Virus record (IMG/VR): IMGVR_UViG_3300013902_000267
Reading direction: 5' to 3' (one strand)
Length of the DNA: 64,000 nt
Source: a virus
Lineage: Duplodnaviria; Heunggongvirae; Uroviricota; Caudoviricetes
Shown piece after piece: positions 13,227-62,193 of the stretch. The first letter of the stretch is position 1. Each line of letters begins with the position of its first letter. The notes beneath the pieces were generated by a model. That model worked only from the letters and a program-made list of their open reading frames with translations. It had not been told where the DNA came from and searched no databases. A program made the position numbers and the translations under genes.

Positions 13227-13262
13227 TTTTTATAAACATTCACATTTAATTTTACTATAAAA

Positions 13263-15286: not shown

Positions 15287-15292
15287 TAATAT

Positions 15293-16333: not shown

Positions 16334-16335
16334 TT

Positions 16336-29038: not shown

Positions 29039-29758
29039 TTAATTATTTTTAAAAATTTTTTCTTTCCAATAATTAAAGTCAATATCTTTGATTTGATATT
29101 GAATTAAATTTCCAGTTAATACATCAGAAAGTTTTACAGGTTTATAATCATTTCCATCAACACCAACATCATATGTCATTGCTTTTTCTTTTAATTTCTT
29201 AGCAATATTTGCATCTGTACCTGTATATGTTTCAACATTCTTTGGTGTATGCAGATGTCCATGTATATTGAACTTTCCTAAAAATTGACCATCACAATGT
29301 GGATAATGTGAAACTGTAAATTGAAGAATTATTTTATCTTTATAATCGTCATATATTTGTACAATAAGTTCTGTACTCCAATATACTTTACTATTCTCAT
29401 TATATGGCATCATATTCCTTCTTTGCAATACATTCTTTACATCATGATTTCCAATAATATTATAAATCTTTTCAGCATTAATATTATTAACCATTTCATC
29501 ATATGTACTTACATTACTAAATATAAAATCACCACAATTTATAAGTATTGGATTAACGCATTCAGATAAAGTTTCATTAAGATTATCAAATAAAACTTTA
29601 TTCATTTCTTGTACATCTTTAAATGGTCGATTACAATATTTTATTATATTTGCATGATTTGCATGTATATCACTAGTAAAAAATATTCTATTTATATCAG
29701 ATACTTTAAACTTTAATATATGCGGCCCCATTACTACTGTTTTCTTTTCTTGCTTCAT
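29039..29758 (-). CDS. calcineurin-like metallophosphoesterase
   Basis: FFTSDIHANH, CGDFIF, IIGNHD and IHGHLH motifs. Confidence 0.7.
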   Translation of the reverse strand: MKQEKKTVVMGPHILKFKVSDINRIFFTSDIHANHANIIKYCNRPFKDVQEMNKVLFDNLNETLSECVNPILINCGDFIFSNVSTYDEMVNNINAEKIYNIIGNHDVKNVLQRRNMMPYNENSKVYWSTELIVQIYDDYKDKIILQFTVSHYPHCDGQFLGKFNIHGHLHTPKNVETYTGTDANIAKKLKEKAMTYDVGVDGNDYKPVKLSDVLTGNLIQYQIKDIDFNYWKEKIFKNN

Positions 29759-29761
29759 TAT

Positions 29762-30016
29762 TTACCAAAATCCCCTTTTATAATCTTCATATTCTACATA
29801 ACATCTTTCTACATTCCTAAATAGAATTTTAAAATAACGTGGAAGTTCATCATACATTAATGCTAAACATTGATCTACACTTAATGGATCAACTATATAT
29901 TCATGTCCAGATAATTCCCAACATTTAGTTATAAGTTTTGCTTCACTTTCAACATAATCACACATAAATGGAGCAATCCATATATTACCAGAGTTCTTAA
30001 TTGTTACAATTCTCAT
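29762..30016 (-). CDS. hypothetical protein
   Basis: Track ORF of 84 aa. Confidence 0.5.
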   Translation of the reverse strand: MRIVTIKNSGNIWIAPFMCDYVESEAKLITKCWELSGHEYIVDPLSVDQCLALMYDELPRYFKILFRNVERCYVEYEDYKRGFW

Positions 30017-30018
30017 TA

Positions 30019-30822
30019 TTACATATTTCTAAATGAAGTTTTTGGATCAAAACCTGCATTTATAATTTTTGTTTTATTATCAGGTAAGCATTCAGGTTCT
30101 TTCTTTGTTTCCCAAAGAAAATTCTCTATATCTATATAAACATTCTGTTCATTCGTTATTCTACTTCTATTTGAACCTAATACATCAAACTTTTGTTTTA
30201 CAAATATAGGATTAATTGTTAATCCTGCATTACCATCAAGATAGTGAGAAATATCATCTGATTCATTAGCATACATAAAAGTAGGTGATTCAAGCTTTCT
30301 GAATATATCTGGATTCTCTATTTTCCAACTTTGTTTTTCAAATTCAAATTTAGGAATATACCACCTACTATTTCTATCATACAATTTATCAATATGAAGC
30401 TTTTCTCTTAATCCATTTTTCTTACAATATTCATCAAATTTACATTGGACCTTATTATAAATTTTATCCCACAAATTCTTATCATGTACATATTCTTCAG
30501 CAACTGGTATAGGATTTAATTCAATAGGGACATATGTATTTCTTGTAATTTTATGCATAATTACATAAAATGGACATATATAGATATAAGGATAAAATCC
30601 ACATACAATAGATTCCATCCATGCTACATAATCTTCTTTAAATCCATATGTATGAAAATAAAGATGTCCATAATCATGAATTTCCTTTATAATAGATTTA
30701 TATTTTTTATCATCTTTATCTATTTGTATAGGATTACGTACATAGGTAATACTTTCATCTGGTTTACCAAGAATAAATCCAAATGAATCATAAAAATCCT
30801 TATATTTTGATACTATTTTCAT
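30019..30822 (-). CDS. hypothetical protein
   Basis: Track ORF of 267 aa. Confidence 0.55.
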   Translation of the reverse strand: MKIVSKYKDFYDSFGFILGKPDESITYVRNPIQIDKDDKKYKSIIKEIHDYGHLYFHTYGFKEDYVAWMESIVCGFYPYIYICPFYVIMHKITRNTYVPIELNPIPVAEEYVHDKNLWDKIYNKVQCKFDEYCKKNGLREKLHIDKLYDRNSRWYIPKFEFEKQSWKIENPDIFRKLESPTFMYANESDDISHYLDGNAGLTINPIFVKQKFDVLGSNRSRITNEQNVYIDIENFLWETKKEPECLPDNKTKIINAGFDPKTSFRNM

Positions 30823-30827
30823 AATGA

Positions 30828-31280
30828 TTAAACTTTCATTTCTTTGTTAGATTCTGCAATATAAAGTTTCATATGTGTAAATATCATATATCCCCTATAT
30901 ACAGTATCTAAATTTTCATTTTCGTAAAAATGCTTTACTGCATTCTTCCTTTGTTCTTCACGTATTTCATCTATTCCTCTCCATTGAGATTCAGACCTAT
31001 ATGTATATTCATTAAATTTAAATCCATATGAATATTGTTCATATAAATCATTATTTAGTTTTCGAACGTGATTATATATATTTTCCCAAAGTTTCTTATC
31101 TATCCGTTTATTTGCATTCATAAAAAGATAAATCATGTCATAATTATCTTCTATATATGTAGCAAATGTTTCTTTAATATATGGCTGAAATTCTTCATAT
31201 GGATGATGTTTCTTTGGACGACCTCGTTTTCTTTTAACCGGTTGTTCAATAATTTCTTCAGTATCTTTAATTTCTTCCAT
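30828..31280 (-). CDS. hypothetical protein
   Basis: Track ORF of 150 aa. Confidence 0.5.
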   Translation of the reverse strand: MEEIKDTEEIIEQPVKRKRGRPKKHHPYEEFQPYIKETFATYIEDNYDMIYLFMNANKRIDKKLWENIYNHVRKLNNDLYEQYSYGFKFNEYTYRSESQWRGIDEIREEQRKNAVKHFYENENLDTVYRGYMIFTHMKLYIAESNKEMKV

Positions 31281-31282
31281 TT

Positions 31283-31477
31283 TTACTTTGCAAACTTTAA
31301 TTTCATAATAAGTTCATCCACTAATTCACCTGGAACATCATTCACTTTAATATATTGATTATCAAACTCAGACCATACACATGTGCATTCAGTCCACTTC
31401 AATACATCAATTAACTTTTGAACCATATCCTTTGAAAGTGATACTTGATTATTATTTCCTTTAAGTGTAAAATCCAT
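31283..31477 (-). CDS. hypothetical protein
   Basis: Track ORF of 64 aa. Confidence 0.45.
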   Translation of the reverse strand: MDFTLKGNNNQVSLSKDMVQKLIDVLKWTECTCVWSEFDNQYIKVNDVPGELVDELIMKLKFAK

Positions 31478-31598
31478 TATCGTTTTAATTTAAGTTATTA
31501 ATATACATATATTACTTTAAAAATATTGATTTGTTTACTCATATAAAATAAAAAATCTCTAATAATCTTTCAAAATTATTAGAGATAAAAATATAAAA

Positions 31599-32393
31599 TT
31601 ACTTTCCAAGAATTAAATTAGGAATTCCGTGACTACCAACATATGTTTTTGGTAGTTCTCCTGTCCATTTTTCAATTGCCATTTTTTGAATAAGCAAAGG
31701 TGTAAGAGACTGTTCTTTCAACTTATTTGCTTTAGCTTCTGCTTCTGCAAGAACAATCTTTTTCTTTGCTTCTGCTTCTGCCACGCGTATCTCATTGCTG
31801 ACTCGCATTTCATCTTGTATAGCTTTGTTTTTAGCATTAATAGCTTCTTCATAAGATTTCGGATAACCAATACCTGGTGTTAGTTGCTGAAGAATAAAAT
31901 GTTCTTTTGCAAATGATTTTCTAACTCTATCCTCAAATGATTTATCAACTGATTCTCGATTTGATACAATCTGATCTGCTGTATACTTGTTGAATTCAAT
32001 ACGAGCAGCGTCTCTAATATATACATATAATGTATTCTTTACAATATCATCAAGTTGCTTACGATATTTCTTAAATATAATAGGCGATTTCCCATCTTCT
32101 ATTTTTACAAGAACTGCTGGATCAACTGTAAATTTTGTTCCATCTTTACTGTTTACTTCAAATGATGGATAATCTACTGTCTGAATATATGTAGGATATT
32201 CAAATACGTCATTCGTAAATGGACAATACCATTTAACGCCTGTACATAGACTTACTTCACCCACACCCTTATCATCACCATAAAGATTTACATAAATACC
32301 TTCACACCCTGCGTCTATCCTCTCATACCAGCAAGATGTCAAACTCATACATGCTATAATAGCAACAATAAAATTCAATAGAATTTTCTTCAT
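31599..32393 (-). CDS. SPFH/band-7 family lipoprotein
   Basis: Signal peptide with lipobox (ACMSLTSC), an SPFH-like core, and the Ala/Glu coiled coil RVAEAEAKKKIVLAEAEAKANKLKEQ typical of HflK/C and prohibitin proteins. Confidence 0.65.
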   Translation of the reverse strand: MKKILLNFIVAIIACMSLTSCWYERIDAGCEGIYVNLYGDDKGVGEVSLCTGVKWYCPFTNDVFEYPTYIQTVDYPSFEVNSKDGTKFTVDPAVLVKIEDGKSPIIFKKYRKQLDDIVKNTLYVYIRDAARIEFNKYTADQIVSNRESVDKSFEDRVRKSFAKEHFILQQLTPGIGYPKSYEEAINAKNKAIQDEMRVSNEIRVAEAEAKKKIVLAEAEAKANKLKEQSLTPLLIQKMAIEKWTGELPKTYVGSHGIPNLILGK

Positions 32394-32418
32394 ATAAAAT
32401 TATATTTTAAATAGTTAA

Positions 32419-32670
32419 TTAATGTTGTATATTCTTATTCATTTCTTTTTGTCTCTTCATATATCTAATATAAAAATCATTATAATATCGCAATACAATA
32501 ATACAGCAATATATAGTAAATAATATAACAAATAACGCTACAATATTTAAAATCGTAGATGTTACAGAAAGTAATGTAGGTATTGCATATCCAAACATTA
32601 CAACCAGCAGAATAATAAATCCTGATGTTACTGTATAAATTCCTAATTTTCTAAGTGGATTATGATACAT
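32419..32670 (-). CDS. small membrane protein (2 TM helices)
   Basis: Track ORF of 83 aa with two long hydrophobic segments. Confidence 0.5.
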   Translation of the reverse strand: MYHNPLRKLGIYTVTSGFIILLVVMFGYAIPTLLSVTSTILNIVALFVILFTIYCCIIVLRYYNDFYIRYMKRQKEMNKNIQH

Positions 32671-32779
32671 AGTTTTAATTTTTATAATTATAATTTTATA
32701 TAATTATTTATTACATTTGTCTACTTTTAATATAAAGAAAAGAGAATAACAAGTTAATGTTATTCTCTTCAATATAAAA

Positions 32780-34816
32780 TTACTTTTCAATCATCTTAAT
32801 AGATCTCTTAACGAATTTCGCTAAATCTTCACCTTGAAGCAAACCATACTGCAACAATGCAATATCAATCAACTCGTGAATATGATTATCTGTATGTGCA
32901 TGATTATTGATGATTTCTTTCTTCTTCTCTAGGACTTTATCAAGTTCTTCCTTAATAGGTTTCTTTGCATCATCATTTTCTGCGTTTTCAAGGCGTGAAT
33001 TAATGTCTTTAACTTGTTCATTAATTTCATTAATTGCAGGTCCAATTTCTTTTTCTGCAATCTTAATAATTTTCTTAACAACCTTTGAATCTGCATTAAT
33101 TACAAATTTAATATTTGCATTATCCTCAAGATACATACCAGCATTATTAAGCATAGACATTTCTTTCATACGACGGAAGAACTCATCTGCGATAATAGTA
33201 ATAGGCAAAGCATCCTTGCCATCTTGCTTAACCTGGAATTGATGTGTAATCTTAGGAAGATTCAAATCAATACAATCAAACAAAGAAATAAGCATACTAA
33301 TAATATTATCAGAAATTGGTTTAACTTTCTTTGTATCATCTTCTTTCTGAATAAGTTCCTCTGGTACTGCAGAGTCAATTCTCTTAAATGTTACATTCTT
33401 ATCCTGAAGTTTCATCTCGAATGTATGAACTTCAAATGCACCATATTGACTATTAAACAACAAGATGTTATATCCATATTCCTTCAATGCTTCAATATAT
33501 GTATATTGTGTAGCAGTATCATATGTATAAAGATATACAATCTTTCCATTCTTATCTTTCTGTGTCTCTAATACCTTATCATAATATTCATCAAAAGTAT
33601 ACATCTTATTATCTGTATCAACAAGAAGAATAATATCCTTTGCCTTGTCAAAAATATTAGGCTCCGTTACAACACCAAGGTTAATAAATGTTTTAATCGT
33701 CTCCCATTTCTTTTCATATGTTTCACGATCTTTCTTCATAAGAGTTCTCAATGAACTCATTACCTTATTTGTAATATGTGAACTAATCTTCTTAACATTC
33801 GCATCATTCTGAAGAACTGATCTTGAAACATTCAAAGGAATATCAGGGGAATCAATCACACCATGAAGAAGACTCAAATAATCTGGCAATACACCATCAA
33901 CATCATCTGTAACGAATACGCGGTTACAATACAAATTCAAATGTCTACGTTCAAAAATAGGATGTTTTTGATCGAATGCTGGGAAATAAAGAATACCCTT
34001 AAATGTAAATGGTGTATCAATATTAATATGAATCCAGAAAAGAGGGTCAGGTCTACCAGGAAATGTATCCTTATAAAACTTAATATAATCTTCATCTTTA
34101 AGTTCTGATGCAGACTTCAACCACAATGGTTCATCTCTTGTAATCAAATTTTCTGTAGGCTCTGGATATGTAACTTCACCTGTAGACGCATCTGTTGTAG
34201 GTGCAGGAATATCTTTAAGATAAATCTTTACAGGAAGATATTCAGCATATTTCTTAAGAAGTTCAGAAAGTTTTGAATTATTTACATATTCCTTATACTC
34301 ATCAGAAATATGCATAATTACATCTGTACCAACAGTTTCTTTATCATCATCTACAAGAGTAAATTCTGTTGTTCCTTCACAAGTCCAACGACATGCTGTT
34401 GAACCTTCCTTATAACTCTTTGTGACAATCTCAACCTTTGAACTCACCATGAAACTTGAATAGAATCCAAGTCCAAAATGTCCAATAATCTGAGTATCTT
34501 TATATTTCTCAAGAAAATCATTAGCACCCGAAAATGCAATCTGATTAATATACTTCTCTACTTCATCAGCAGTCATACCGATACCCATATCAGATACAGT
34601 AATAGTATTATCTTCATGATTAATAGATACTGTAACTTTCAAATCATCGGGATTTGCATTATACTCATTTGCGCTAATAACCTTAACAAGTTTCTCTGTT
34701 GCATCAACTGCATTACTAACAATCTCACGGATAAAAATATCCTGATCGTTGTACATGAACTTTTTTATCAATGGAAAAATATCCTAACTAGTAACTCCAA
34801 TATTACCTTTTTGCAT
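32780..34816 (-). CDS. htpG: HSP90-family chaperone HtpG (1 in-frame TAG at 34784-34786)
   Basis: EIVSNAVDA, DMGIGMT and IGHFGLGFYS GHKL motifs. Start extended to MQKGNIGVTS-TAG-DIFPLIKKF, in frame with track ORF 32780-34771. Confidence 0.85.
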
Positions 34817-34893
34817 ATTTAATTATCAATAAAATTTTTATTTAATTATTATACTCTAATATAAGTTAATTGTTTGAATTATTTTAAAATAAA

Positions 34894-34924
34894 AAAGGGT
34901 ATAACCTTTAGAGTTATACCCTTT
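34894..34924 (-). terminator. rho-independent terminator
   Basis: AAAGGGTATAAC / GTTATACCCTTT perfect 12-bp hairpin, followed by a T run on the minus strand. Confidence 0.55.
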
Positions 34925-35057
34925 AAAAATTAATAGTATGTTTTTAATAATTATTCAAAATCTAAAAGTCCAATAAAATCTCCGCTTTAAATTAACCTCC
35001 AATAACACAGGGACATTCATTACTCATTAATCATCCAATTAATCTATAATACTATTT

Positions 35058-35076
35058 TCATCTCATTTTCAACTCC
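35058..35076. repeat. 19-nt direct repeat copy 1 (TCATCTCATTTTCAACTCC)
   Basis: Repeats at 35127-35145 with one mismatch, inside an ORF-free 570-bp region. Confidence 0.6.
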
Positions 35077-35126
35077 TAAACTTATATCAAACTTTTATTT
35101 TAAAATAAAAATCTTTATAAAAATTA

Positions 35127-35145
35127 TCATCTCATTTTCAATTCC
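35127..35145. repeat. 19-nt direct repeat copy 2 (TCATCTCATTTTCAATTCC)
   Basis: See copy 1; the spacing is 69 bp. Confidence 0.6.
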
Positions 35146-35495
35146 AATATATTACTTCATAATCTTCAAATTAACTTTCTTGGGTATAATACTACTGTAC
35201 TATTAAAATAAAGTTTCAATAATACCTTCCTAATAAACTGAAATAACTAATAAATAGTATCTAATTTATGTTTTTACTTGATTTATGGGATTATCAGAAA
35301 TATGTATATTGTTTATTCTTAAATATATTTAATCGTTCATATTCTATTATATATTACTACAACTATACATATATTCATATCATATTTCTAATTATAAATA
35401 TCTATTGATACTTATCTGATAAAGGAAATGGTCATAAAATCATAATGGTTTAGCCTATAGATTCAGTTATACTATTATTTTTTATATTATATCTT

Positions 35496-35921
35496 TTACT
35501 TATTAGTACTATCCTCTTTATTATTTTGAGCAATATCTTCATTCATCATTCGATAAATACGCTCAGGTGATTCATTGAATGTTGCAGACTCAATTGTCTC
35601 ATTATTAAAGTAAATAGTTGATACATACTTTCCAGATTCCTCTGTTTGAGAAATAACAGAAATAATATCTGTATTTACAATCATTACAGAATTATCGTCA
35701 TTCGAATGAAGCTTCAAAAAATCTGTATTACCAAAATCAATAATATTTTGATAAATTTTCTCGGGTGTTTCATTCACTGTAATACTATCAATATTATCAT
35801 CATCAAAATATACAGTTGTTACTTTATCTTCTGTACATACAATACTAATCTTATTAATACGTATAATAATAACACTGTTATCTTCCTTTGAATGAAGTTT
35901 CAAAAACTTATTTGTTGACAT
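35496..35921 (-). CDS. hypothetical protein with internal tandem domain duplication
   Basis: FLKLHSKEDNSVIII...ETPEKIYQNI repeats as FLKLHSNDDNSVMIV...ESPERIYRMM. Confidence 0.5.
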   Translation of the reverse strand: MSTNKFLKLHSKEDNSVIIIRINKISIVCTEDKVTTVYFDDDNIDSITVNETPEKIYQNIIDFGNTDFLKLHSNDDNSVMIVNTDIISVISQTEESGKYVSTIYFNNETIESATFNESPERIYRMMNEDIAQNNKEDSTNK

Positions 35922-36016
35922 ATTTGTTATTTAGTTTATATTACTTTATTAAATTCAAATTACAATAATCATATAATGTAAATTAGATAAAGTCTATAAT
36001 TTATTTAAAATATTTT

Positions 36017-36421
36017 TTACTTACAAGGAATCCAATTAAACTCCATAGAAAATACTTGCAATCCTGGTTCATACTTAATATGATACATTTTGCAATCATT
36101 TCTATTTAATGTAAATATAGTTCCTTGTGGTCCTTCTACTTGCTTAAGAATTAATACATTAAGAAGTTGACTTTTTGATGTATAAATAAACTTCTTACAT
36201 ATATATTTCTTAACTATTTCTCTTGATCCACAAACTGACTTTTGCCTAAGCATATACTTTTGTCCAATAACAAACTTTTTGTTAACAAGAGCTTTTGCAT
36301 TATTCTTTGCCTCTTGTTTTGATAATTCAACAATAGGTTCAATTAATGCGTCTTGCTCTTGTTCTTGCTTAGTCTTTAGTTCAGATTTTTTTGGACTCGC
36401 TTCCATCAAAAAAAATCCCAT
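36017..36421 (-). CDS. hypothetical protein
   Basis: Track ORF of 134 aa. Confidence 0.45.
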   Translation of the reverse strand: MGFFLMEASPKKSELKTKQEQEQDALIEPIVELSKQEAKNNAKALVNKKFVIGQKYMLRQKSVCGSREIVKKYICKKFIYTSKSQLLNVLILKQVEGPQGTIFTLNRNDCKMYHIKYEPGLQVFSMEFNWIPCK

Positions 36422-36438
36422 AACTATATATACTAAAA

Positions 36439-37560
36439 TTACTTTTTATCTGTATCTGTCAATGATACTTCAAGTTGACGTGCAAATTCACGCAAATGAT
36501 GCTCATATTCTTTTCGCTCCTCTGCACCACGTTCATGAATATTCTTAACTTCCTGAATAGTCTGAATAAGTTCCTGAGTTGTGTCCTTAAGTGTATCAAG
36601 TTTAATAACCGATTCCTCACTTGCCTTTGCAACATTAACAGAATTCATATGCAATGCCTTTGCATTTTCACGAAGGATCTTATTCGTTGTATCAGTAATT
36701 CTTTGTTGTGCCTCAATAGAATTTTTCTGATTATTCATAATGATACTAATAGAAATCTGATTCTTCCACAACGGTAAAACATTATTTACAATATTATCAG
36801 ACTTATCTGCAATTGCAATATTATTTTGCTGAGTTGCTCTAATCTGAAGAAGATTCTGCGTCAATACATATTCAGTTGTCTCCATATCAACAACCTTCTT
36901 CTGGATCTGATTCAAGAAATTCTGAGTATCATTAATCTCATACATTTCATAATCATTTGCATGTGCCTTCATATTTTCAAGTTCATCCTTTACTGCTTGC
37001 TCACGAATTTTAGCAGCCAAAATCAACTCTCGTATTTGCTCAATATATGATACATTAGCATCAAAAATAACATTAAGTGTTGAGTTATCTCTCAATGCAA
37101 CAGTACGTGCTTGGTCAATCTTTTCACCAATCTTAGATACACTATCCTTAATAGTATCATATTTTGTCATAATAGACTCAACAGAAGTCATCATCTTTCC
37201 AATAATAGGGAAATTACGCCAAAACTTCTTCCATCGTGTATTAGTATTAATCTCATCAATATCAATAAGATTAAGTTGTCCAAGAAGTTCATTTGTCAAC
37301 TGAACAACAACAGATGAATTATCGCCACGAACAGAATTCAAAAGGTTATCACCATTTCGAGAAATAACAGAGCTAAGTTCCTTACCATATGATGTAACAG
37401 TTGTCATATCATGTCGATCAAGTTTCTCTGTCTTTTGTAGATACTTTTGCTTTTCATCAGCAGACATAACAGCAATACGCTGATCATAGTTATACTGATT
37501 TTGAGTAAGGGTTTCTACTTGTCCCTTCTCATTAAACATTGCTACTTTTGTATTATCCAT
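36439..37560 (-). CDS. TelA-like (toxic anion resistance family) protein
   Basis: 373-aa all-helical protein. By-eye resemblance to the TelA/KlaA family (N-terminal ..TSYGKEL.., long coiled regions); not verified. Confidence 0.5.
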   Translation of the reverse strand: MDNTKVAMFNEKGQVETLTQNQYNYDQRIAVMSADEKQKYLQKTEKLDRHDMTTVTSYGKELSSVISRNGDNLLNSVRGDNSSVVVQLTNELLGQLNLIDIDEINTNTRWKKFWRNFPIIGKMMTSVESIMTKYDTIKDSVSKIGEKIDQARTVALRDNSTLNVIFDANVSYIEQIRELILAAKIREQAVKDELENMKAHANDYEMYEINDTQNFLNQIQKKVVDMETTEYVLTQNLLQIRATQQNNIAIADKSDNIVNNVLPLWKNQISISIIMNNQKNSIEAQQRITDTTNKILRENAKALHMNSVNVAKASEESVIKLDTLKDTTQELIQTIQEVKNIHERGAEERKEYEHHLREFARQLEVSLTDTDKK

Positions 37561-37633
37561 TAACTTTAGTAATTTAAAATTATTAATTAAAATTTACATT
37601 AATATATATAATAACTTATTAAAAATGTTTAAT

Positions 37634-38197
37634 TTACCAACCACATTTTTCAGTTATTAACTTTAATTTGTCTTTCTCCTCTTTTTTCAATGCATCAACT
37701 TCTTCTTTTACCATATGTGGATCATCATATATTTGAATTTTAGGTAAAACTTTTTTATTCTTATTACGACCCCACATTTCATTTAGATATTTGCTATATT
37801 TAGACATCGCTTCAAATCTATAATCAGGTGCATATCTATTATTATTTGTTGCAATATAATATAATTCTTCCTTTTTCTTATCAACGAAATCTTCTAATGT
37901 TTTGTTATTACCTATATATCTTTCCAATAATCTATAATTAAAAGATGTATTTTGAATATTATCCGGAGTAATAGTATTTGCAAGAATTTTTTTACGTTCT
38001 CTATCAATAACAATATATCTAAGTTCACATACGTTAAGTTCTTCGATAAAATTATCACAAACAGACTTATCATCAAATTCTTCTGCTTGTTCATTATCTG
38101 AATTTTGTGGAATACCGTAATTATTGATAGATCTAATCTTATCTATATAAATAACTACATATCTCTTATGCCATAAATATCTTCTATAATTATTCAT
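37634..38197 (-). CDS. hypothetical protein
   Basis: Track ORF of 187 aa. Confidence 0.5.
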   Translation of the reverse strand: MNNYRRYLWHKRYVVIYIDKIRSINNYGIPQNSDNEQAEEFDDKSVCDNFIEELNVCELRYIVIDRERKKILANTITPDNIQNTSFNYRLLERYIGNNKTLEDFVDKKKEELYYIATNNNRYAPDYRFEAMSKYSKYLNEMWGRNKNKKVLPKIQIYDDPHMVKEEVDALKKEEKDKLKLITEKCGW

Positions 38198-38202
38198 AAT
38201 AA

Positions 38203-38982
38203 TTAAACTTTATCTTGACTAAATATATTATATGAAATATTAAATTCTTTCTCGTTATTTGTTATATTTTTAATAGTACCGAATTCATCTATCATAAATC
38301 CAGCTCTACAATCCAAACATGCATATGTTTCTCTAAATATAGGTGTTTCTTGTTGTTGTGTATGTCCAAATATCTGATAATAAATATCATCTAATTTATT
38401 ATCTTCATATTGTAATTCGCATTCATCAGCCCAAAGTATTGAACCGTATTTAGAATACCCTCCACGTGCATATCCTACATAATCAAAAACTTTTGCTAAC
38501 TTTTGATTATCATGTTTCCGTATAAGTTCATTTAAATATGTAATAGAATCATAAATATTCTTATGTTTTATTTCACCTACATATTCGTTTTTCCATTGAT
38601 TACCAATACATGAATGACTAAATGTTACCATACAATCATTTATCATTCTGTATGTAACTACTTTAAAATATTTTATATTATCAATAAACAATTTACGATA
38701 TTCATCAGCATGCTCATAATCATATCGCGATCTAGATAAAAATTTCTTGCTGATATATTGTATATCATGATTTCCTAATAATAGTGTTACTTTATCAATA
38801 TTTTTAGATTTAAAATCAAGAATTTCTTTGAAATTACTTATAGCATCATCTATAGTTATTCCTTCATATCTATATGGATCCAAATAATCACCTAAGAATA
38901 TAATTTCATCACATTCTTGATTCACACATTCTTTCCAAAATGTACGTCCATGAATATCCGGTATAATTATAATTTTACTCAT
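38203..38982 (-). CDS. Ser/Thr-phosphatase-like metallophosphoesterase
   Basis: IIPDIHGR, FLGDYLDP, LLGNHD and IFGHT motifs. Confidence 0.7.
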   Translation of the reverse strand: MSKIIIIPDIHGRTFWKECVNQECDEIIFLGDYLDPYRYEGITIDDAISNFKEILDFKSKNIDKVTLLLGNHDIQYISKKFLSRSRYDYEHADEYRKLFIDNIKYFKVVTYRMINDCMVTFSHSCIGNQWKNEYVGEIKHKNIYDSITYLNELIRKHDNQKLAKVFDYVGYARGGYSKYGSILWADECELQYEDNKLDDIYYQIFGHTQQQETPIFRETYACLDCRAGFMIDEFGTIKNITNNEKEFNISYNIFSQDKV

Positions 38983-39035
38983 TAAATAAAATACTTTTAT
39001 AAATTATATTCATTAGATGATTATTTGTTTGATAA

Positions 39036-40082
39036 TTATTCAGATACATTATCTTTCATAACTTCATGATATTGTTCCTTTGCATATTCTTGCATATCAG
39101 GAACGTCATCTGTTTCATCAATAATTTCAATATTGAGTATTGTTTCGATAACATCCTCCAATGTTACAATACCTCTAAACGTTCCATATTCATCAGTAAT
39201 TGCAGAAATATGTTCATGATTCTTTACCATATCATTAAATATATCTGATACATCTGTAGTATCAATATAGTTATGAATATCATGGACATAATCAGAAATC
39301 TTAATATCCTCCTTTGTTAAATCCAATTCATTCTTAAGAATATAACCACTACAATAGTTATTCATATTCATACAAGGAATACGAGAGAATGTATCACCAT
39401 TAGAAAGATATTTATATAAATCTGTATCTTTATGAACTGTTATATAATCCGCAATAGTTTCAACAACAGTTGCAGGCGTCATAATATCTTCAGCTTTATA
39501 TTGATTAAGTTTCAATATACGTTGAATAATCATATTCTCTTTCTTATCAATTACTCCCTCTTTTGCACCTTCATCTGTCATTGCAATAATCTCTTCACGT
39601 GAAATAGCAACAGCATTATCATTACTAATAAGACGTGTTACAAAATTAAGAATCTTAACCAGTGGATATGTAATATAAATCATTATATTAATTACACGAG
39701 TAACATACAATGTAATATTTTTCCAATAATTTGCACCTATAGTTTTTGGTAAAATCTCAGCAAACATAAGAATCAATACTGTAAATATTGCTGATATGAT
39801 ACCTATAAATGAAGCGCCATCAATACCTTGTTCAACTGCATATGCTGATGCAGCTGAACCAACAATAGATGCACCTACTGTATTTGCAATAGTATTAATA
39901 ATAAGGATAGCAGACAATGGTTTATCCATATTTTCCTTAAAATTTCTTAATATATCTGCCCCAGATTTTCCTTTAAGTGTAGATACAAAAGACATAGGTG
40001 TAGAAGACAAACATGCTTCACATAACGAGCAAATTGCTGATACCACAATGGCAATCAACATATAAATTATAATTGTTTCCAT
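39036..40082 (-). CDS. CNNM/CorC-HlyC family membrane protein (DUF21 + CBS pair)
   Basis: N-terminal multi-TM DUF21-like region, then IMTPATVV and ISAITDEYGTFRGIVTLEDVIETI CBS-pair motifs. Confidence 0.75.
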   Translation of the reverse strand: METIIIYMLIAIVVSAICSLCEACLSSTPMSFVSTLKGKSGADILRNFKENMDKPLSAILIINTIANTVGASIVGSAASAYAVEQGIDGASFIGIISAIFTVLILMFAEILPKTIGANYWKNITLYVTRVINIMIYITYPLVKILNFVTRLISNDNAVAISREEIIAMTDEGAKEGVIDKKENMIIQRILKLNQYKAEDIMTPATVVETIADYITVHKDTDLYKYLSNGDTFSRIPCMNMNNYCSGYILKNELDLTKEDIKISDYVHDIHNYIDTTDVSDIFNDMVKNHEHISAITDEYGTFRGIVTLEDVIETILNIEIIDETDDVPDMQEYAKEQYHEVMKDNVSE

Positions 40083-40087
40083 TTAGC

Positions 40088-40396
40088 TTAATCTTTTTTA
40101 TAATAATCATTCAGCCAATCACATTTTTTAAGATAATGGATATATTCACCATTACGGAATGATCCCTCTAAATATTGTGTATCATCCCATGTTTCTTCAT
40201 GTGTATAACCTGTCTGAAGACTATGACATAATACTCTTACATCATTACATTCATCTTCATTGAAATCAGTTAATAATGTAAATACCATATCACCTTCACC
40301 ACCACCATTACGGAATGTATAACCAGTTTTCAGATATTGAGGACGAGACCAGAAATCTGAATGATTCATAGGATAGAATTGTACTTTATTACTCAT
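40088..40396 (-). CDS. hypothetical protein
   Basis: Track ORF of 102 aa. Confidence 0.5.
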   Translation of the reverse strand: MSNKVQFYPMNHSDFWSRPQYLKTGYTFRNGGGEGDMVFTLLTDFNEDECNDVRVLCHSLQTGYTHEETWDDTQYLEGSFRNGEYIHYLKKCDWLNDYYKKD

Positions 40397-40434
40397 AATT
40401 ATTTTATTTTTAATTGTTTAATATACCATATTAA

Positions 40435-40698
40435 TTAGAATGGCAGTTCAGATTCAATAACACCTGGCTCTCCTAATGGGAGAAAATCCATACATGTATT
40501 AGTATTAAATACACGATCAAATGCATACATTACAGAAAACTTTACAAACTCATCCTTATCAACAATAAGATCTGATGTTTCCTGCTGAATATATGATGCT
40601 TCTGCAACTAATGTATTTAATGTATCATTATCAGTTAATTCTTTATTAAAACGATTCTTATATTCGTTTTTAATCATTTCTATTAATGTTGTATTCAT
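40435..40698 (-). CDS. hypothetical protein
   Basis: Track ORF of 87 aa. Confidence 0.5.
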   Translation of the reverse strand: MNTTLIEMIKNEYKNRFNKELTDNDTLNTLVAEASYIQQETSDLIVDKDEFVKFSVMYAFDRVFNTNTCMDFLPLGEPGVIESELPF

Positions 40699-40730
40699 AT
40701 TTCTTATTTTTTATAATTGAATTATTACAT

Positions 40731-40742
40731 CACAAAGATACA
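40731..40742 (-). promoter_or_regulatory. conserved promoter core (gene-sense TGTATCTTTGTG; TAnnTTTG -7-like)
   Basis: One of 5 copies of the ACAAAGATACA motif (plus-strand spelling), each upstream of a minus-strand start codon. Confidence 0.45.
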
Positions 40743-40810
40743 CATATTTTTTAAAACAAAAAAATGATGATACTATATTTTTCAATATAATACCATCATT
40801 TAATATTTAA

Positions 40811-41974
40811 TTATTGTTCGTCAATATAACTATTTGAATCATCATTATCAATATTTTCAGATTGTTCATCTTCAATATTAGTTATACTCTTTAATATATT
40901 ATCTTTATATTTTTTATTTATACATTTATTTAATATATATGGTTCCATAGTTTCCGATCTACTAAACATAAATCCATTTGATTCATATAAATTTGAATTC
41001 TTTTTACATAAAGCAGATATTCTAGAAAATGCAACACCTGTTATCTTTTCCGCATCTTTTAATTTATTACATTTATATAACAATTTTCCGTTTAAATTAA
41101 ATACATTTACTCCTTTTTGTGTTAATAATATATCTTTATTTTTATAATTTACACAATAATTATATATTTCATTAGTCCATTTTCTAGTTAATGTAGGTAA
41201 CTAATATTTTATTATATAATTTTCATAATAATATTTAAAAATAGTTCTTGCTTTCTTAGATGATATAATATAATAACCAAAATTTTTTGTTTTATCTTCT
41301 ATAAAAATATTTGATGTTTTATCCTATAATATTTCTTCAAATCTTTGTTTTATATATAATAGTGTTTCATATGTTCCTACACAACTTATATATAAACGTT
41401 TACTTTTATGTCTATTTTCATTATATACTCCTATAGAACCATCTCCATCTATTACACCTATAATAAAGCAATCCTTATATATAGTTTCTAATATTGGTGG
41501 TATATATACATTCGTTTTCTATTTAGTAATATTAAAATTTTTATATAAATCATTCACTATCTACTCAGATAAAATATGAAAACTTACATTTTTAAATTTT
41601 TTATTATTTAAAATATTATAACCATAATATAATTTATATGTTGATGATATATTATATTTCAACTATTTTAAAAAATTCTCATCTTTTATTGATAATTTTA
41701 TATTCAAATTTTTATTTGTTTTATCTATAGAACCATCGGCAGCTATAAACCCTGCATAGTAAGAATTTATCGGATTTATTAATGAAAAATAATTATCATT
41801 AACATTATAAATACGTTCTCCTTTAATATTTTTCTTTAGTTGTAAATTATATACCTTTTTCCAATATGTTAAATTCTTACAAATTTTACCGGTAATTTCT
41901 TTTGATGCAACCTATTCTGAAATATTTTTATTATTTGCATAATCTATAATTTCCTATAATATATTTTTATCCAT
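40811..41974 (-). CDS. LAGLIDADG homing endonuclease (7 in-frame TAG)
   Basis: Two LAGLIDADG motifs (YYAGFIAADGSI, FIIGVIDGDGSIG). ATG 41974 is in frame with track ORF 40811-41083 (891 nt) and all internal stops are TAG. Confidence 0.75.
40860..40887. repeat. 28-nt perfect direct repeat copy A (GATTGTTCATCTTCAATATTAGTTATAC)
   Basis: Identical to 42066-42093. Encodes ITNIEDEQS at the C-termini of both the LAGLIDADG ORF and the RNA ligase. Confidence 0.7.
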
Positions 41975-42043
41975 TTATTAAAAAATATTTTATATATTTA
42001 TATAAAATATGGAAGCATTTAAACTTAAATGCTTCCATAAATA

Positions 42044-43555
42044 TTAATTAGTTTCATTTTCTGATGATTGTTCATCTTCAATATTAGTTATACCTGCATC
42101 TAATTCTTTTTCTTCCTTATTAACAAAACGATAGCACTTCAATTTGAATGCACGAGGTATCATATCATCTATTTTAATTACAACACCTTCATGTGGAACT
42201 TTATTATTACATTCAGGTGATAACATTTCCATATAAAAATTCTTATCACTTGACATCTTATTCCAAAAATTTTCGTGCCAATGATTAGTTATATCAAGCT
42301 CAGGATACAAATCTTTAGCTTTACCATAATAATATTCAATTACAGGTGTTAATTCATGTTGAATACACCATACTTGTACTTCTCGTGGTGAAAATTCATG
42401 TACATCTCCATCAACATTTGTTAAAGTAATACGATATATCATTATCTTAAAATGCTTTCCATATGTATACTCTTCACCAGACTTTAAAGGTACACATCCA
42501 TAATCATATCCCTTTTGTATATAATTATTATTTGGAAGATAACCTACAATTTCTGCATAAATCATCATTCCCTTTATCATGTGTGGCTTTAATACATTAA
42601 ATGCTTCACCCCATATATCAAAATTATAGAATCCCTTATGATATACATTACCATTTTTTTCAGATTCCTTCATTATATACTGGTTTTTTATAACAGTTCT
42701 TGATGAATATAAATAATCATAATCATTAAATTCATAACCTGTTAAAAATTTCGCAATTTTCTGCTTTATAGTTAATTGTTTCTTACATAAAACATAACCA
42801 ACACAAAGAGAAGTACCGTGCCATTTAGAACTTATATGTATATAATCATTAGGTTGAACAACAAATGGAACCTTCTTAACAAGTGCAGTGTCGTAATGGA
42901 ACCTAAATTGTTCTGGTATAACTCTGTTAAATCTCTTTAACTTTCGTTGTCTTCTCTTATATCTAGATTGATCACCTCCAGTTTTATTTCTCTTTATAAA
43001 TATCTTTGGTATAAATTTCTTTGATAACCAAAATGATTTACCATTATGTTCAATAGTATCAAACCATGTTCCATCCTTTATATCATTCTCATTAACTTCT
43101 ATATTAAAATTATCTAATATAAAATTAAGAACTACTTGTAATTCTATCAAGAAACCATCTGATACACCATTAGGTAAAAATACTTTTTCAACTTCTCCAG
43201 TAGATGGATCAATTTTATCCATTGTTGCTCGTAGTCTAATGGACTTCACTCTACCATTATCATCAAATAACCCAGTTTTATTAGGATTACTATTCATTTC
43301 ATTTTTACGATATAAATTAGCATATCTTAAAAATTCAGGATTTATTTGTGTACTTGATGGAAAGAATACATATTTTCCTGGTTGTGAATCCTTACTTACT
43401 ATAACATTATAAATTGTATCTCCACCTATTCTACAACACTTTAACTTGTTAACTTCAGGATTAGGATGTGGAGAGAAATCCTCTTCCTTGATATAAATTA
43501 CACGTGAAACATAATTAGGGTGTAATTCACTTTCCTTCGACTTAATAAACTTCAT
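42044..43555 (-). CDS. ATP-dependent RNA ligase (503 aa)
   Basis: ISSKWHGTS (KxHG nucleotidyl-lysine motif), IYAEIVGY, HEGVVIKID and FKLKCYRF motifs. Confidence 0.7.
   Translation of the reverse strand: MKFIKSKESELHPNYVSRVIYIKEEDFSPHPNPEVNKLKCCRIGGDTIYNVIVSKDSQPGKYVFFPSSTQINPEFLRYANLYRKNEMNSNPNKTGLFDDNGRVKSIRLRATMDKIDPSTGEVEKVFLPNGVSDGFLIELQVVLNFILDNFNIEVNENDIKDGTWFDTIEHNGKSFWLSKKFIPKIFIKRNKTGGDQSRYKRRQRKLKRFNRVIPEQFRFHYDTALVKKVPFVVQPNDYIHISSKWHGTSLCVGYVLCKKQLTIKQKIAKFLTGYEFNDYDYLYSSRTVIKNQYIMKESEKNGNVYHKGFYNFDIWGEAFNVLKPHMIKGMMIYAEIVGYLPNNNYIQKGYDYGCVPLKSGEEYTYGKHFKIMIYRITLTNVDGDVHEFSPREVQVWCIQHELTPVIEYYYGKAKDLYPELDITNHWHENFWNKMSSDKNFYMEMLSPECNNKVPHEGVVIKIDDMIPRAFKLKCYRFVNKEEKELDAGITNIEDEQSSENETN
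42066..42093. repeat. 28-nt perfect direct repeat copy B
   Basis: See copy A. Confidence 0.7.
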
Positions 43556-43933: not shown

Positions 43934-44425
43934 TTAAAATAGTTTAACGGACGCATTAGTATCCATTCTTTCCTTCATACCATTATTATAATAATCAGCC
44001 AAAATTTCAGCTTTAATTTTAGGTGACAATACTTTCCGTACTACATAATCATAATTAAAATTAAAGAATTCATTTATAGCTATTACCATTTCATATGCAG
44101 ATAATGTCTTCACCTCTGCTAATTTATTTTTCATGTAATAGAAGATTTTCCCTGTTTCTTCCTTAGGTATTTTTGGAACGACGAATGTAGATGTATCAAC
44201 TTTATATTGTTCTGCAAATGGAGATTCTATCCATATGCTATATAATTTTTCTGCTGTATCTTTCCTTTCATGCAACAAGACTATATCATCTGTCATCGCA
44301 TAATCATACTAATCTGCGACTAAAGGAGATACAGTCATTGTTTGACTTGAAAGATCTGCATTATAGTCTGAACTCGCAAAATACCCATCATTACTAAGCA
44401 TCTTCTATGTATTAATTCTTGCCAT
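43934..44425 (-). CDS. hypothetical protein (2 in-frame TAG), possibly a helicase accessory factor
   Basis: ATG 44425 is in frame with track ORF 43934-44296 (129 nt) and only TAG intervenes. Confidence 0.55.
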
Positions 44426-44491: not shown

Positions 44492-46000
44492 TTACATAGA
44501 AAATAAATCTTGTGCTTGTATTTGTGTTTCAGTTAATCCTAATTGCGGAGTACTCATAGAATCAGATGCACCGGGACGAATACCAACAGATGAAGAATAA
44601 TTATTTGAATTATTATGTTGGTAATTATTATCTCCTTTATGCTTATCTTTTACTAATCCATCCAATGAAACATTCTCAGGAATAATATTTTCCTCAAGAT
44701 TCTCTTCAATTCTTAAATATGTAGGATTAAAATCAAATTTCTTCTTATCTCCCATGTGTCCAGAATTACGTATTGCTACTGCTTTCAAATAATATGTATT
44801 ATCTACACGCATTAAAGATGACTGAATAATACCGAACAAACTATCAACAGTTGCGATAAGACCTCCAGATTCTGAAACGTTACTCATACCAATATCAGTA
44901 GAATCATATGCAGTTCTATTTGTCTGTGTTAATGATACAACACACCAATTATTTCTCTGAGCCATCGCACGAACATCCTCGCAGATAGATTTAATCTTTA
45001 AATATGTACTTTCAGAATTTGGATTCTTTGCGTCTTTCATAATATTAACATAATCAATGAAAATGTTCTTAAACTTAAATGGTTTATCTTCTGTAGATAA
45101 CTCTTCTTCTTGCTTAAGTAAGAATGACTCAATATCATAAACAGTTGCAGATGATGTAGGGAACTCTTCTATAATAAACTTACCTGGATTAATAAGTGAA
45201 TTCATATAAAATTCCTTCATTTTCTGCATCATAAGATTTGTGTCTGATGCATACTTATCATATTCTTCAATTGGAATATTAAAAAGATTTGAACCTATAC
45301 GTTGTGCTACAAGCTGATAAGCCATCTCCAATGTAATATATGCAGAATTCTCACCATTTCTTACAGAATTCGCACATAGGTTACAAAGCCACATAGATTT
45401 ACCAACTTTAGGTGACCCCATAAATACATTAAGAGTCTTATTTGCCCATCCGCCTTTCAAACATTGATCAACAAAATTATAACCTGTTTTCCTTGTTTCA
45501 AGTTCAGTTTGTTTATGATTAATTGGGTCAAAGAAATCATGTCCTTTAGAATTATTTAATGTAAAATTAGTTTCACTCTGAAATAATGATTTTATATGTT
45601 GTACAATTTCTGCACAATTTTCAAATGTAACTTCAGATTCTGTTGTCTTTACATATTCAATAACTCTTCGGAGACCTGTCATTAAATTCTACCATTCGCC
45701 AAATGCTACTGTATTCTGTTCCAACCATTCATCTGTATATTGACTAACCATATCACGAGTTTGCCATAATGTATGAATTTGATCTTCTGTTACTTTATCA
45801 TCTTTAGCTGCTAATCTAATAAGATCTATTGTTTGTTGCTCAGTTGGTTCTGCTCTAAAATCTAATATATGCGGTTTAACCACATCAAATATAATTTTTA
45901 ATGCAGGATTAGTAAAATATCTTCCTTTAAAAGACTATACAAGATTTAAATTCTTAATTATATAAAAGAATATGACGTTTTCAAGATACGTATTATTCAT
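44492..46000 (-). CDS. DnaB/gp41-like replicative helicase (2 in-frame TAG)
   Basis: Track ORFs 45689-45883 and 44492-45682 are co-framed and joined by TAG 45689-45691, extended to ATG 46000. Walker A GSPKVGKS and a RecA-like core (LTQTNR). Confidence 0.75.
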
Positions 46001-62187: not shown

Positions 62188-62193
62188 ATATAG

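Follow-up and report, generated by a model that had tools for sequence, protein, structure and literature searches.

The 28-nt repeat downstream of the RNA ligase gene in this phage DNA very probably belongs to a mobile cassette that encodes a homing endonuclease, has the 3′ end of the ligase gene as its target for intronless homing, and follows a "C-terminal replacement" design, with cleavage itself predicted from the sequence. The DNA analysed, here called the window, is a 64,000-nucleotide stretch that is 100% identical to the Prevotella megaphage Lak-B genomes B2, B4, and B7. The cassette is 1.2 kb long (window ~42155 to 40888) and has three parts: (a) substitute last ligase codons with their own stop (…ITNIEDEQS-SENETN and stop), (b) a short spacer with a terminator-like hairpin, and (c) a LAGLIDADG plus NUMOD1 gene with its own ATG and no stop of its own. 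Because the cassette brings a substitute ligase end with a stop, the ligase stays intact. The endonuclease frame runs on without a break into the displaced native end of the ligase, and the gene uses the native stop and terminator. During a mixed infection, the enzyme would cut an endonuclease-less ligase allele near its 3′ end, and repair of the break would copy the cassette and some of its flank from the endonuclease-carrying genome. The features of the locus are listed below.

42044..43555, minus strand: RNA ligase gene, 503 aa, Rnl2-like, with a KxHG motif I and no in-frame TAG
42044..42155 (left limit approximate), minus strand: cassette-borne substitute ligase 3′ end, ~36 terminal codons that take in the new tail SENETN and its stop
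42066..42093, minus strand: upstream copy of the 28-nt repeat, within the working ligase ORF, reading ITNIEDEQS
42008..42039, minus strand: terminator-like hairpin and U-rich run carried by the cassette, directly after the new ligase stop
41974..40811, minus strand: endonuclease ORF, 387 codons from its own ATG, open only with TAG as a sense codon
40888..41974, minus strand: endonuclease proper, codons 1–362, with an N-terminal helical region, two LAGLIDADG domains, and a NUMOD1-like helix-turn-helix
41954–41956, 41912–41914, 41663–41665, 41561–41563, 41519–41521, 41324–41326, and 41201–41203, minus strand: seven sense TAG codons
40860..40887, minus strand: downstream repeat copy, 28 nt, read in frame near the end of the endonuclease ORF
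40811..40885, minus strand: native C-terminus of the ligase, displaced, with the sequence ITNIEDEQSENIDNDDSNSYIDEQ and the native stop, now supplying the endonuclease ORF with its final 24 codons and its stop
40755..40801, minus strand: native terminator-like hairpin with an 18-bp stem and U7, once after the ligase and now after the endonuclease
40480..40887, minus strand: one-sided recombination (co-conversion) tract of roughly 410 bp adjoining the insertion point

The repeat, GATTGTTCATCTTCAATATTAGTTATAC, occurs as two exact copies at 40860–40887 and 42066–42093, each reading ITNIEDEQS on the minus strand, just as the sequence-only reading had reported. It is not a common sequence: the window holds no other copy even when up to 3 mismatches are allowed, and none of 100 dinucleotide-preserving shuffles gave a match (chance expectation 0). 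Outside the exact 28-mer, a looser likeness runs on into both tails, with 81% identity over 47 nt. The placement of one copy near the end of the ligase and the other near the end of the endonuclease also holds, as the ligase ORF (43555..42044) ends in DAGITNIEDEQSSENETN followed by its stop, and the endonuclease frame ends in KSITNIEDEQSENIDNDDSNSYIDEQ followed by a stop at 40811.

Alignment with endonuclease-less relatives identifies the original ligase end. Lak-C1, A1, and A2 have no cassette and align with the window as two segments sharing an overlap of exactly 28 nt. These genomes, together with five more A/C-type contigs, contain a single repeat copy and no endonuclease, and their ligases end in ITNIEDAQSENIDNDDSNSYIDEQ and a stop. 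The tail that is now fused to the endonuclease is thus the original end of the ligase, as had been suspected from the sequence, and the substitute tail SENETN is unlike it. We found no endonuclease-less genome of the Lak-B type.

A mosaic contig, L100, carries the cassette on a different backbone. Its backbone is of the A/C type (96–100% identical to C1/A1) and its cassette is 95–100% identical to that of Lak-B, which bears out the recent mobility event proposed earlier. The breakpoints of the mosaic can be mapped: the L100 ligase changes from A/C type to Lak-B/cassette type between L100 positions 2365 and 2371 (equivalent to window 42158–42152), and its two repeat copies differ, the downstream one being partly of recipient type. 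Between Lak-B and L100, dS is 0.079 in the endonuclease and 0.83 in the ligase body, so the cassette has moved horizontally; between Lak-B and L099 the corresponding values are 0.30 and 0.73. Informative sites are too few to decide the direction of the transfer between Lak-B and the A/C type.

The same comparison can be made in a distant lineage, where L025 has the cassette and L026 does not, and where the flanks around the 1.2-kb insertion are 96–97.6% identical. The endonuclease-fused end of L025 equals the ligase end of L026 at 59 of 60 nt, and the working ligase end of L025 is recoded and foreign. Hence the cassette is polymorphic for presence and absence at one precise site in two distant lineages, Lak and L025/L026. 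The earlier proposal that the insertion either duplicated the target 3′ end or brought its own copy can now be narrowed, as the differing copies in L100 and the recoded working end in L025 fit the second option better than the first.

We also weighed whether the repeat could be a target-site duplication that arose in place when a free endonuclease gene inserted by a transposition-like or fill-in process, rather than arriving with the element. This would account for the two Lak-B copies being identical over 28 nt and directly flanking the insert, but we consider it highly improbable. The cassette ends lack terminal inverted repeats, no transposase domain was found, and the exact duplication has no fixed length, varying from 8 to 34 nt between lineages (28 nt in Lak-B, 34 nt in L099, 18 nt in L100, and 8–9 nt in L101, L102, and L025). 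The upstream copies of these last three are recoded over ~20 codons, and L100 suggests that the upstream copy moves along with the cassette. The cuts made by LAGLIDADG enzymes have 4-nt overhangs, and no duplication arises when homing proceeds by break repair.

Under the homing explanation, the 28-nt repeat is the stretch over which the substitute and the displaced native ligase ends remain identical. This has a consequence for the cleavage site, since any recognition site no longer than 28 bp, if placed inside the repeat or at one of its edges, would survive intact in Lak-B. The intact 28-mer in Lak-B therefore implies that the site is longer, lies off the junction, or depends on the two substitutions, ACA to ACT and GCA to GAA, that distinguish Lak-B from Lak-A/C.

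The empty alleles can also be read in the opposite direction, with the cassette ancestral in Lak and lost from Lak-A/C by recombination between the repeats, in which case the "native" A/C tail would be the tail of the endonuclease. Perfect direct repeats of 28–34 nt placed 1.2 kb apart can give a precise deletion with the A/C structure, the cassette is found in two diverged Lak clades (Lak-B and L099), and about 70 distant endonuclease-less ligases terminate in NIEDE[AQN] and a stop, at the repeat and with no long tail. However, the endonuclease dS is 2.4 to 10 times below the ligase dS between lineages, which shows lateral movement rather than co-inheritance; L100 combines an A/C backbone with nearly the Lak-B cassette; and the allele of the empty relative fused to the L025 endonuclease, next to a foreign working end, is an invasion signature. 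We therefore regard an ancestral cassette as quite unlikely to be the main explanation. Gain and loss are both expected in the life cycle of a homing endonuclease, so that such loss complements the homing explanation and does not replace it. Some of the empty sites may be secondary, since recombination between the repeats yields the same empty allele.

The DNA downstream of the insertion point carries a further trace of genetic exchange. By sliding identity and alignment, the tract at 40480..40887 is 92–97% identical to Lak-A/C against a background of 70–86%, and codons 1–75 of an 87-aa ORF in this flank have a dS of 0.18, compared with 0.6–0.94 in neighbouring genes. Selection as the source of this likeness is ruled out, because the same ORF has a dS of 0.91 against L099. 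Co-conversion of the ligase body, as a reason for 80% identity upstream versus 95% downstream, is ruled out as well: the ligase body lies at the genome-wide background of 70–86%, and it is thus the downstream tract that is anomalous. Phylogenies of Lak-like ligases and recombination analyses should mask the last ~36 ligase codons and the ~400-bp flank. With filled and empty sites, recent transfer between lineages, and mapped conversion tracts, the locus would serve as a clear case of homing in nature among uncultivated megaphages.

The two hairpins agree with the proposed layout. The cassette-carried hairpin has perfect 15-nt arms and a predicted RNA fold of −21 kcal/mol (z −4.25), and it is kept in L099 and L100. 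The downstream hairpin has an RNA fold z of −3.63 and stands directly after the ligase stop in Lak-C1. The displaced tail between the endonuclease and this second hairpin is predicted to be disordered, with a pLDDT of 44–65 in the AlphaFold2 model of P0001, a database protein 96% identical to the Lak-B endonuclease.

The upstream gene was identified as an RNA ligase by PHROG 968 "RNA ligase" (E 1.6e-23) and by Pfam RNA_ligase PF09414, the latter at 27.1 bits with a cutoff of 27. K244, H246, and G247 are invariant in the ligase alignment, and relatives carry the Pfam marks PHA02142/RNA_ligase. Searches of the ligase against solved structures and NCBIfam gave no matches.

The sequence-only reading had placed a LAGLIDADG endonuclease gene just 3′ of the ligase, and the gene is there, its ATG separated from the ligase stop by a 69-nt spacer. 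It matches Pfam LAGLIDADG_3 at 30.2 bits (cutoff 22.5; E 5e-7) and PHROG 4645 "endonuclease" at E 1.6e-22. The LAGLIDADG motifs are YYAGFIAADG (codons 72–81) and IIGVIDGDG (codons 171–179, the motif as a whole taking in codons 170–179), within which G75, F76, A79, D80, G81, G173, D176, G177, D178, and G179 are invariant in 47 homologues. A NUMOD1-like helix-turn-helix follows at about codons 287–325, NUMOD1 being detected in the homologue P0004. The P0001 model (mean pLDDT 89.5) shows a tandem alpha-beta-beta-alpha-beta-beta-alpha LAGLIDADG fold, and almost all of the Foldseek matches listed from the PDB are LAGLIDADG homing endonucleases or maturases, among them I-Tsp061I, I-AniI, the bI3 maturase, I-SceI, and I-OnuI, with probability 1.00. 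Taken together, the motifs and the model identify the predicted product as a single-chain, two-domain LAGLIDADG homing endonuclease with predicted cleavage activity.

The endonuclease is free-standing, lying outside any self-splicing intron or intein. An Rfam search at the locus with E up to 1 returned no intron family, only a sub-threshold chance match to the hairpin. Searching the phage collection by tblastn, we found the endonuclease nowhere else in Lak genomes, which shows that it is not a multi-copy family within the genome. No Bacteroidetes-type promoter is recognisable upstream of the Lak-B endonuclease. By eye, the spacers of L025, L102, and L104 do show a TAnnTTTG element of this type.

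The endonuclease frame requires TAG as a sense codon, a point that the sequence-only reading did not make. The 387-codon frame contains seven in-frame TAG, no TAA, and no TGA, and in the standard code the longest ORF of the region is only 90 aa (40811–41083), so standard-code gene callers fragment the gene. One might accordingly take the frame for a decaying pseudogene with seven stops and the repeat for a relic of an old, inactive insertion, the more so as no suppressor tRNA(CUA) was found by ARAGORN within this 64-kb window of the ~550-kb genome, where only tRNA-Gln(CTG) and tRNA-Lys(TTT) were detected. We find decay barely credible, as all seven interruptions are TAG, whereas the other two frames of the same stretch hold 26–44 TAA and 3–17 TGA. 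The dN/dS between genomes is 0.20, so the gene is under purifying selection; six or seven TAG positions are shared, and codons 138 and 286 alternate between TAG and CAA. Many further genes in the window are likewise open only with TAG read as sense. The endonuclease is thus a TAG-to-Gln recoded gene (genetic code 15), as fits a Lak phage. Lak phages are described as TAG-recoded in PMC8346664 and in preprint 10.1101/2021.08.26.457843, and the preprint reports suppressor tRNAs in them.

Recoding sets the two genes of the locus apart. Seven of the 12 Gln-type codons in the endonuclease are TAG and the ligase has none, which suggests that the enzyme would not be produced until the phage decodes TAG as glutamine. 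The pair could serve as a test case for stop-codon recoding as a means of timing protein production during infection. A related arrangement has been described in TGA-recoded "Agate" phages, in which an early gene contains a recoded group I intron endonuclease with TGA read as Trp (Borges et al., 10.1101/2021.08.26.457843). Both systems have a homing endonuclease rich in the reassigned stop, in or next to a gene lacking that codon, and both enzymes are predicted to be made only after the code switch of the phage. They differ in that the Agate endonuclease sits in a group I intron with TGA as Trp, whereas the Lak gene is free-standing, with TAG as Gln and no intron detected.

T4 SegF, SegG, and MobE are free-standing phage homing endonucleases that spread by intronless homing with co-conversion of their flanks. 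To our knowledge, free-standing LAGLIDADG genes are less commonly described in phages. The Lak gene resembles the T4 Seg/Mob type in being a stand-alone endonuclease gene that adjoins a conserved phage gene and is variably present in close relatives, and in showing inheritance with flanking markers and a boundary of genetic exchange (Barth et al. 2023, PMC10448857). By contrast, the T4 enzymes are GIY-YIG or HNH rather than LAGLIDADG and lie between complete genes, and the T4-type literature (PMC10448857) describes neither a built-in substitute gene end nor in-frame capture of a displaced end.

By layout, the closest known analogue is the fungal mitochondrial mORF element, which replaces the C-terminus of a gene (Paquin et al. 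1994, as cited in PMC3630166). Such elements occur in Allomyces macrogynus atp6, Glomus atp6, atp9, cox2, and nad3, Rhizopus atp9, and Mortierella cox2 (Beaudet et al. 2013, PMC3630166). In both systems an endonuclease ORF (LAGLIDADG or GIY-YIG in fungi) lies near the 3′ end of a protein gene, a foreign and diverged C-terminus has been brought in, and the native C-terminus is duplicated downstream, where it matches element-less relatives. The mORF order of inserted C-terminus, endonuclease ORF, and native C-terminus is found in Lak-B and its relatives, and in Lak-B the inserted and displaced ends diverge only past the shared 28-mer. The host differs, being a bacteriophage instead of an organelle. 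In the fungal cases the inserted C-terminus, the mORF, or both are in phase with the upstream gene, whereas in Lak the ligase has its own stop followed by a hairpin, and the endonuclease starts at an ATG of its own and shares its phase with the native end downstream, whose stop serves it. The Lak endonuclease differs further in its NUMOD1 domain and its TAG sense codons. We found no phage description of a C-terminal replacement architecture in the literature searched, and no mention of endonuclease or RNA ligase in the Lak literature checked, coverage being incomplete in both cases, so that absence there is no proof of novelty. The Lak locus shows that the fungal strategy of bringing one's own gene end operates in phages too.

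The ligase-linked arrangement recurs as a conserved trait across a large family of endonucleases and is not a one-off, which had also escaped the earlier reading. We detected 415 homologues of the endonuclease. Among the best 120, 38 have a ligase-type peptide as their C-terminus, and in all ten genomic contexts examined the endonuclease gene lies directly 3′ of an RNA ligase gene. It is conceivable, though rather unlikely, that this in-frame tail is a selected part of the design and not a passive scar. The family, having no stop of its own, would then yield a full-length and properly terminated enzyme only when the cassette stands at the right codon of the right gene, and the acidic NIEDE tail might have the same use in the enzyme as in the ligase, such as docking to a partner common to both. 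Together with the dense TAG recoding, this would gate the endonuclease twice, by its insertion context and by a late code switch. The family appears to specialise in a single target, the 3′ end of an RNA ligase gene, and would supply many natural enzyme/target pairs (LAGLIDADG plus NUMOD1) for studies of specificity. Outside Lak genomes, the tblastn search of the phage collection gave one further endonuclease match, at 32%, in a 735-kb phage.

The 28-nt sequence GATTGTTCATCTTCAATATTAGTTATAC occurs at exactly two sites in the window, 40860–40887 and 42066–42093. The sequence-only reading had both the positions and the two gene ends right when read on the minus strand. The repeat is not common elsewhere in the window: no third copy was found there with up to three mismatches allowed, and none of 100 shuffled sequences contained a match. 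The two copies bracket a ~1.2-kb cassette consisting of a substitute ligase end with its stop, a hairpin, and an endonuclease gene that has its own ATG but no stop of its own.

43555..42044, minus strand: RNA ligase ORF, 503 aa, C-terminus DAGITNIEDEQSSENETN then stop, with the upstream repeat copy near its end
42008–42022 and 42025–42039, minus strand: arms of the cassette hairpin (z -4.25)
41974 (ATG)..40811, minus strand: endonuclease ORF, 387 codons, end KSITNIEDEQSENIDNDDSNSYIDEQ then stop, with the downstream repeat copy

By homology, the upstream ORF is assigned as an RNA ligase. Its match to Pfam RNA_ligase is barely over the cutoff (27.1 bits versus 27), it matches PHROG 968 'RNA ligase' with an E-value of 1.6e-23, and the KxHG motif I is invariant among relatives. 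The downstream ORF is predicted to be a LAGLIDADG enzyme from its matches to Pfam LAGLIDADG_3 (30.2 bits; cutoff 22.5) and PHROG 4645 (E 1.6e-22), and its two motifs, YYAGFIAADG and IIGVIDGDG, are both invariant in 47 homologues. An AlphaFold2 model of a 96%-identical database protein (P0001) has a mean pLDDT of 89.5, and the PDB folds it matches best are those of I-Tsp061I, I-AniI, bI3 maturase, I-SceI, and I-OnuI. A NUMOD1-type helix-turn-helix 3′ of the nuclease core was detected in the homologue P0004 and is precomputed for many matches. The ligase-derived tail, the last ~28 residues, is predicted to be disordered (pLDDT 44–65 in the model).

The endonuclease gene is thus present as first noticed, but its need for TAG as a sense codon had gone unmentioned. 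In the standard code the frame is interrupted seven times and the longest ORF is 90 aa. All seven stops are TAG, with no TAA or TGA, versus 26–44 TAA and 3–17 TGA in the other two frames. TAG is a sense codon in Lak phages according to the Borges et al. preprint (10.1101/2021.08.26.457843) and to Crisci et al. (PMC8346664), and this reading is also required to open numerous other genes in the window. We considered a pseudogene and rejected it. The dN/dS is 0.20 against both L100 (an A/C-type contig with the cassette) and L099 (a third Lak clade with the cassette), which shows purifying selection, and codons 138 and 286 alternate between TAG and CAA between genomes. Together these mark it as a live gene in which TAG is translated as Gln. 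The G+C content is 19% in the endonuclease gene (40811–41974), 28% in the ligase (42044–43555), and 27% in the window, making the cassette compositionally distinct from its host gene.

Comparison with endonuclease-less relatives, the check proposed from the sequence alone, identifies the original ligase end. The 3.3 kb around the cassette is 100% identical to the Prevotella megaphages Lak-B2, B4, and B7 and 99.8–100% identical to all nine Lak-B genomes. Lak-C1, A1, and A2 align to the region as two segments, which share exactly 28 nt of the subject sequence. These relatives carry a single repeat copy, differing by 2 nt from that of Lak-B, rather than keeping both. Their 512-aa ligase ends in DAGITNIEDAQSENIDNDDSNSYIDEQ and a stop, followed directly by the hairpin and downstream gene found in Lak-B, and five more A/C-type contigs from IMG/VR and metagenomes have the same empty structure. 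Because the Lak-A/C ligases bear the same tail with one repeat, the tail that the endonuclease now carries represents the original ligase end in that lineage, as had been suspected. In Lak-B the endonuclease frame runs into this displaced end and uses its stop and terminator-like hairpin.

A more distant phage, with a ligase only 53% identical to that of Lak-B, supplies an independent filled/empty pair (L025/L026). The flanks are 96–97.6% identical around a 1.2-kb insertion. The endonuclease-fused copy in L025, FLNKEQKALDAGEIDIEDNA then stop, has a single difference from the empty-allele end over 60 nt; the working ligase end, HINKIEQYELDAGIENIEDLN then stop, is foreign and recoded. The sequence-only reading had left two options, that the insertion duplicated the target end or that it brought its own copy; these ends speak against duplication and for the latter. 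In Lak-B, the perfect 28-mer is what the substitute and displaced ends still have in common.

The arrangement is widespread. Among 415 detectable endonuclease homologues, a ligase-type C-terminus (…LD[KA]GE.NIEDE.) is found in 38 of the 120 best cluster representatives, reaching homologues of 35–40% identity and including a subgroup whose C-terminal DNA-binding domain is of another kind. In about 70 distant ligases without an endonuclease, the protein ends with exactly this NIEDE-type peptide, then stop. An RNA ligase gene immediately precedes the endonuclease in all ten genomic contexts examined (Lak-B, L099, L100, L101, L102/103, L104, L025, L107, L108, and L110), even where the tail is missing. 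In the 383-kb phage L110 (4090–4210), the called stop of the homologue is TAG, and the frame beyond it encodes FLNKETEPID..., which resembles a remnant of a ligase end. That phage either reads through TAG or has kept the tail as a decaying relic.

The recent mobility proposed earlier is borne out by L100, a 13.5-kb contig found through P0001. Its flanks on both sides are 96–100% identical to Lak-C1/A1 and only ~80% to Lak-B, whereas its cassette is 95–100% identical to that of Lak-B. Its ligase switches from A/C-type to cassette-type ~65 nt before the repeat, and downstream the Lak-B state persists for ~100 nt before A/C-type sequence resumes. The repeat copies of L100 are unlike each other, the downstream one keeping an A/C-type GCA codon. 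Between Lak-B and L100, dS is 0.079 for the endonuclease versus 0.83 for the ligase, and against L099 it is 0.30 versus 0.73, which confirms horizontal movement of the cassette.

Lak-B itself has a ~410-bp stretch, from the downstream repeat to an abrupt limit near 40480, that is 92–97% identical to Lak-A/C against a background of 70–86% (dS 0.18; 0.6–0.94 in neighbouring genes). Constraint was rejected as the cause, since the same ORF has a dS of 0.91 against L099, and the stretch is therefore a recombination tract. We read it as co-conversion from a homing event between A/C-type and B-type lineages. In the simplest version, an L100-like A/C-type donor passed the cassette to Lak-B together with the displaced A/C-type tail and a ~400-bp flank; transfer in the opposite direction plus a second exchange is possible. 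The last ~12 codons of an 87-aa ORF (40698..40435, minus strand) are wholly different, LGEPGVIESELPF in Lak-B and FDNTILDDDLPF in Lak-A/C (40384–40483). The switch falls exactly where the high-identity tract stops, which places a sharp recombination breakpoint within this small gene.

Natural filled and empty alleles support homing as the explanation; the cleavage itself we infer. During co-infection, the enzyme would cut empty ligase alleles near the 3′ end, and repair of the break would copy the cassette with flanks of variable length. The substitute end would keep the ligase functional and, being recoded, would shield the filled allele. Since the two copies share all 28 nt, Lak-B would itself retain an uninterrupted copy of any target of ≤28 bp located inside the repeat or at one of its edges. 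The site must therefore extend past the repeat, be located away from the junction, or hinge on the two substitutions between Lak-B and A/C. A LAGLIDADG core with a NUMOD1 domain could plausibly recognize a long site, and other free-standing phage endonucleases are known to have off-junction sites.

The dense TAG codons of the gene imply that the enzyme cannot be produced until the phage decodes TAG as Gln. The same logic was proposed for a recoded intron endonuclease of Agate phages (Borges et al. preprint 10.1101/2021.08.26.457843). The cassette is also relevant to the timing of the code switch. TAG makes up 58% of Gln-type codons in the endonuclease (7 TAG and 5 CAA), comparable to the heavily recoded block 14390–19425 (47–57%). 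The ligase has no in-frame TAG among 14 Gln codons, and TAG is essentially absent from the 13 genes downstream. TAG use in the window is patchy and varies by module. Blocks 10270–19425 (plus), 23567–28901 (minus), and 62683–63897 (plus) are open only with sense TAG (20–75% of Gln-type codons), and blocks 223–10149 and 29039–40396 have no in-frame TAG. Upstream of the ligase, two minus-strand genes (43934–44425 and 44492–46000) read as 120 aa and 396 aa in the standard code. The L099/L100 calls are 163 aa and 500 aa (DnaB_C), which would put two TAG in each N-terminal extension. A bacterial-mode scan, which intron-containing tRNAs may escape, found no TAG-suppressor tRNA in the 64-kb window; introns are reported in Lak tRNAs (Lak paper). 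Only two tRNA genes were found:

33–104, plus strand: tRNA-Gln(CTG)
62193–62266, minus strand: tRNA-Lys(TTT)

The nearest known architecture is that of fungal mitochondrial mobile-ORF C-terminal replacement elements, such as those of Allomyces atp6 and Glomus atp6, atp9, cox2, and nad3 (PMC3630166). Both combine a foreign inserted C-terminus, an endonuclease ORF, and a duplicated native C-terminus matching element-less relatives. Unlike the fungal elements, the Lak-B cassette has a phage host, and its endonuclease carries a NUMOD1 domain and sense TAG and is a separate cistron, joined not to the upstream gene but to the native end that lies downstream. Functionally, the cassette appears akin to the intronless homing of T4 Seg/Mob genes, and it is consistent with nuclease genes marking boundaries of exchange between phages (PMC10448857). 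In our incomplete coverage of the phage literature, including papers on Lak phages, we found no description of this arrangement. It is an unusually clean and widespread case of homing, and these genomes had not previously been described as harbouring such elements.

Other endonuclease insertions were also observed. In Lak-A1, an SPFH/Band_7 gene (Pfam Band_7 E 8.5e-24) has a ~1.2-kb insertion (L018:29474–30708) after ...SLCTGAVWYC that is absent from Lak-B (window 31599–32399, minus strand) and Lak-C1. It encodes a different LAGLIDADG ORF of 316 codons with five in-frame TAG, 33% identical to the ligase-site endonuclease, and adds a second case of endonuclease presence/absence polymorphism, possibly carried by an intron. 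In two distant phages (L104:1415–3924 and L107:272–2911) the ligase gene is split by extra LAGLIDADG ORFs, which suggests a hot spot invaded several times by endonucleases or introns:

L104:2728–3330: LAGLIDADG_2 ORF between ligase fragments
L107:982–1905: LAGLIDADG_3 ORF within the broken ligase gene

Two distant ligase homologues have aberrant ends, one running to 865 codons with sense TAG (L010:4001–6598) and one closing in an unrelated peptide (L046:3501–4991); further insertions at this 3′ site may account for them.
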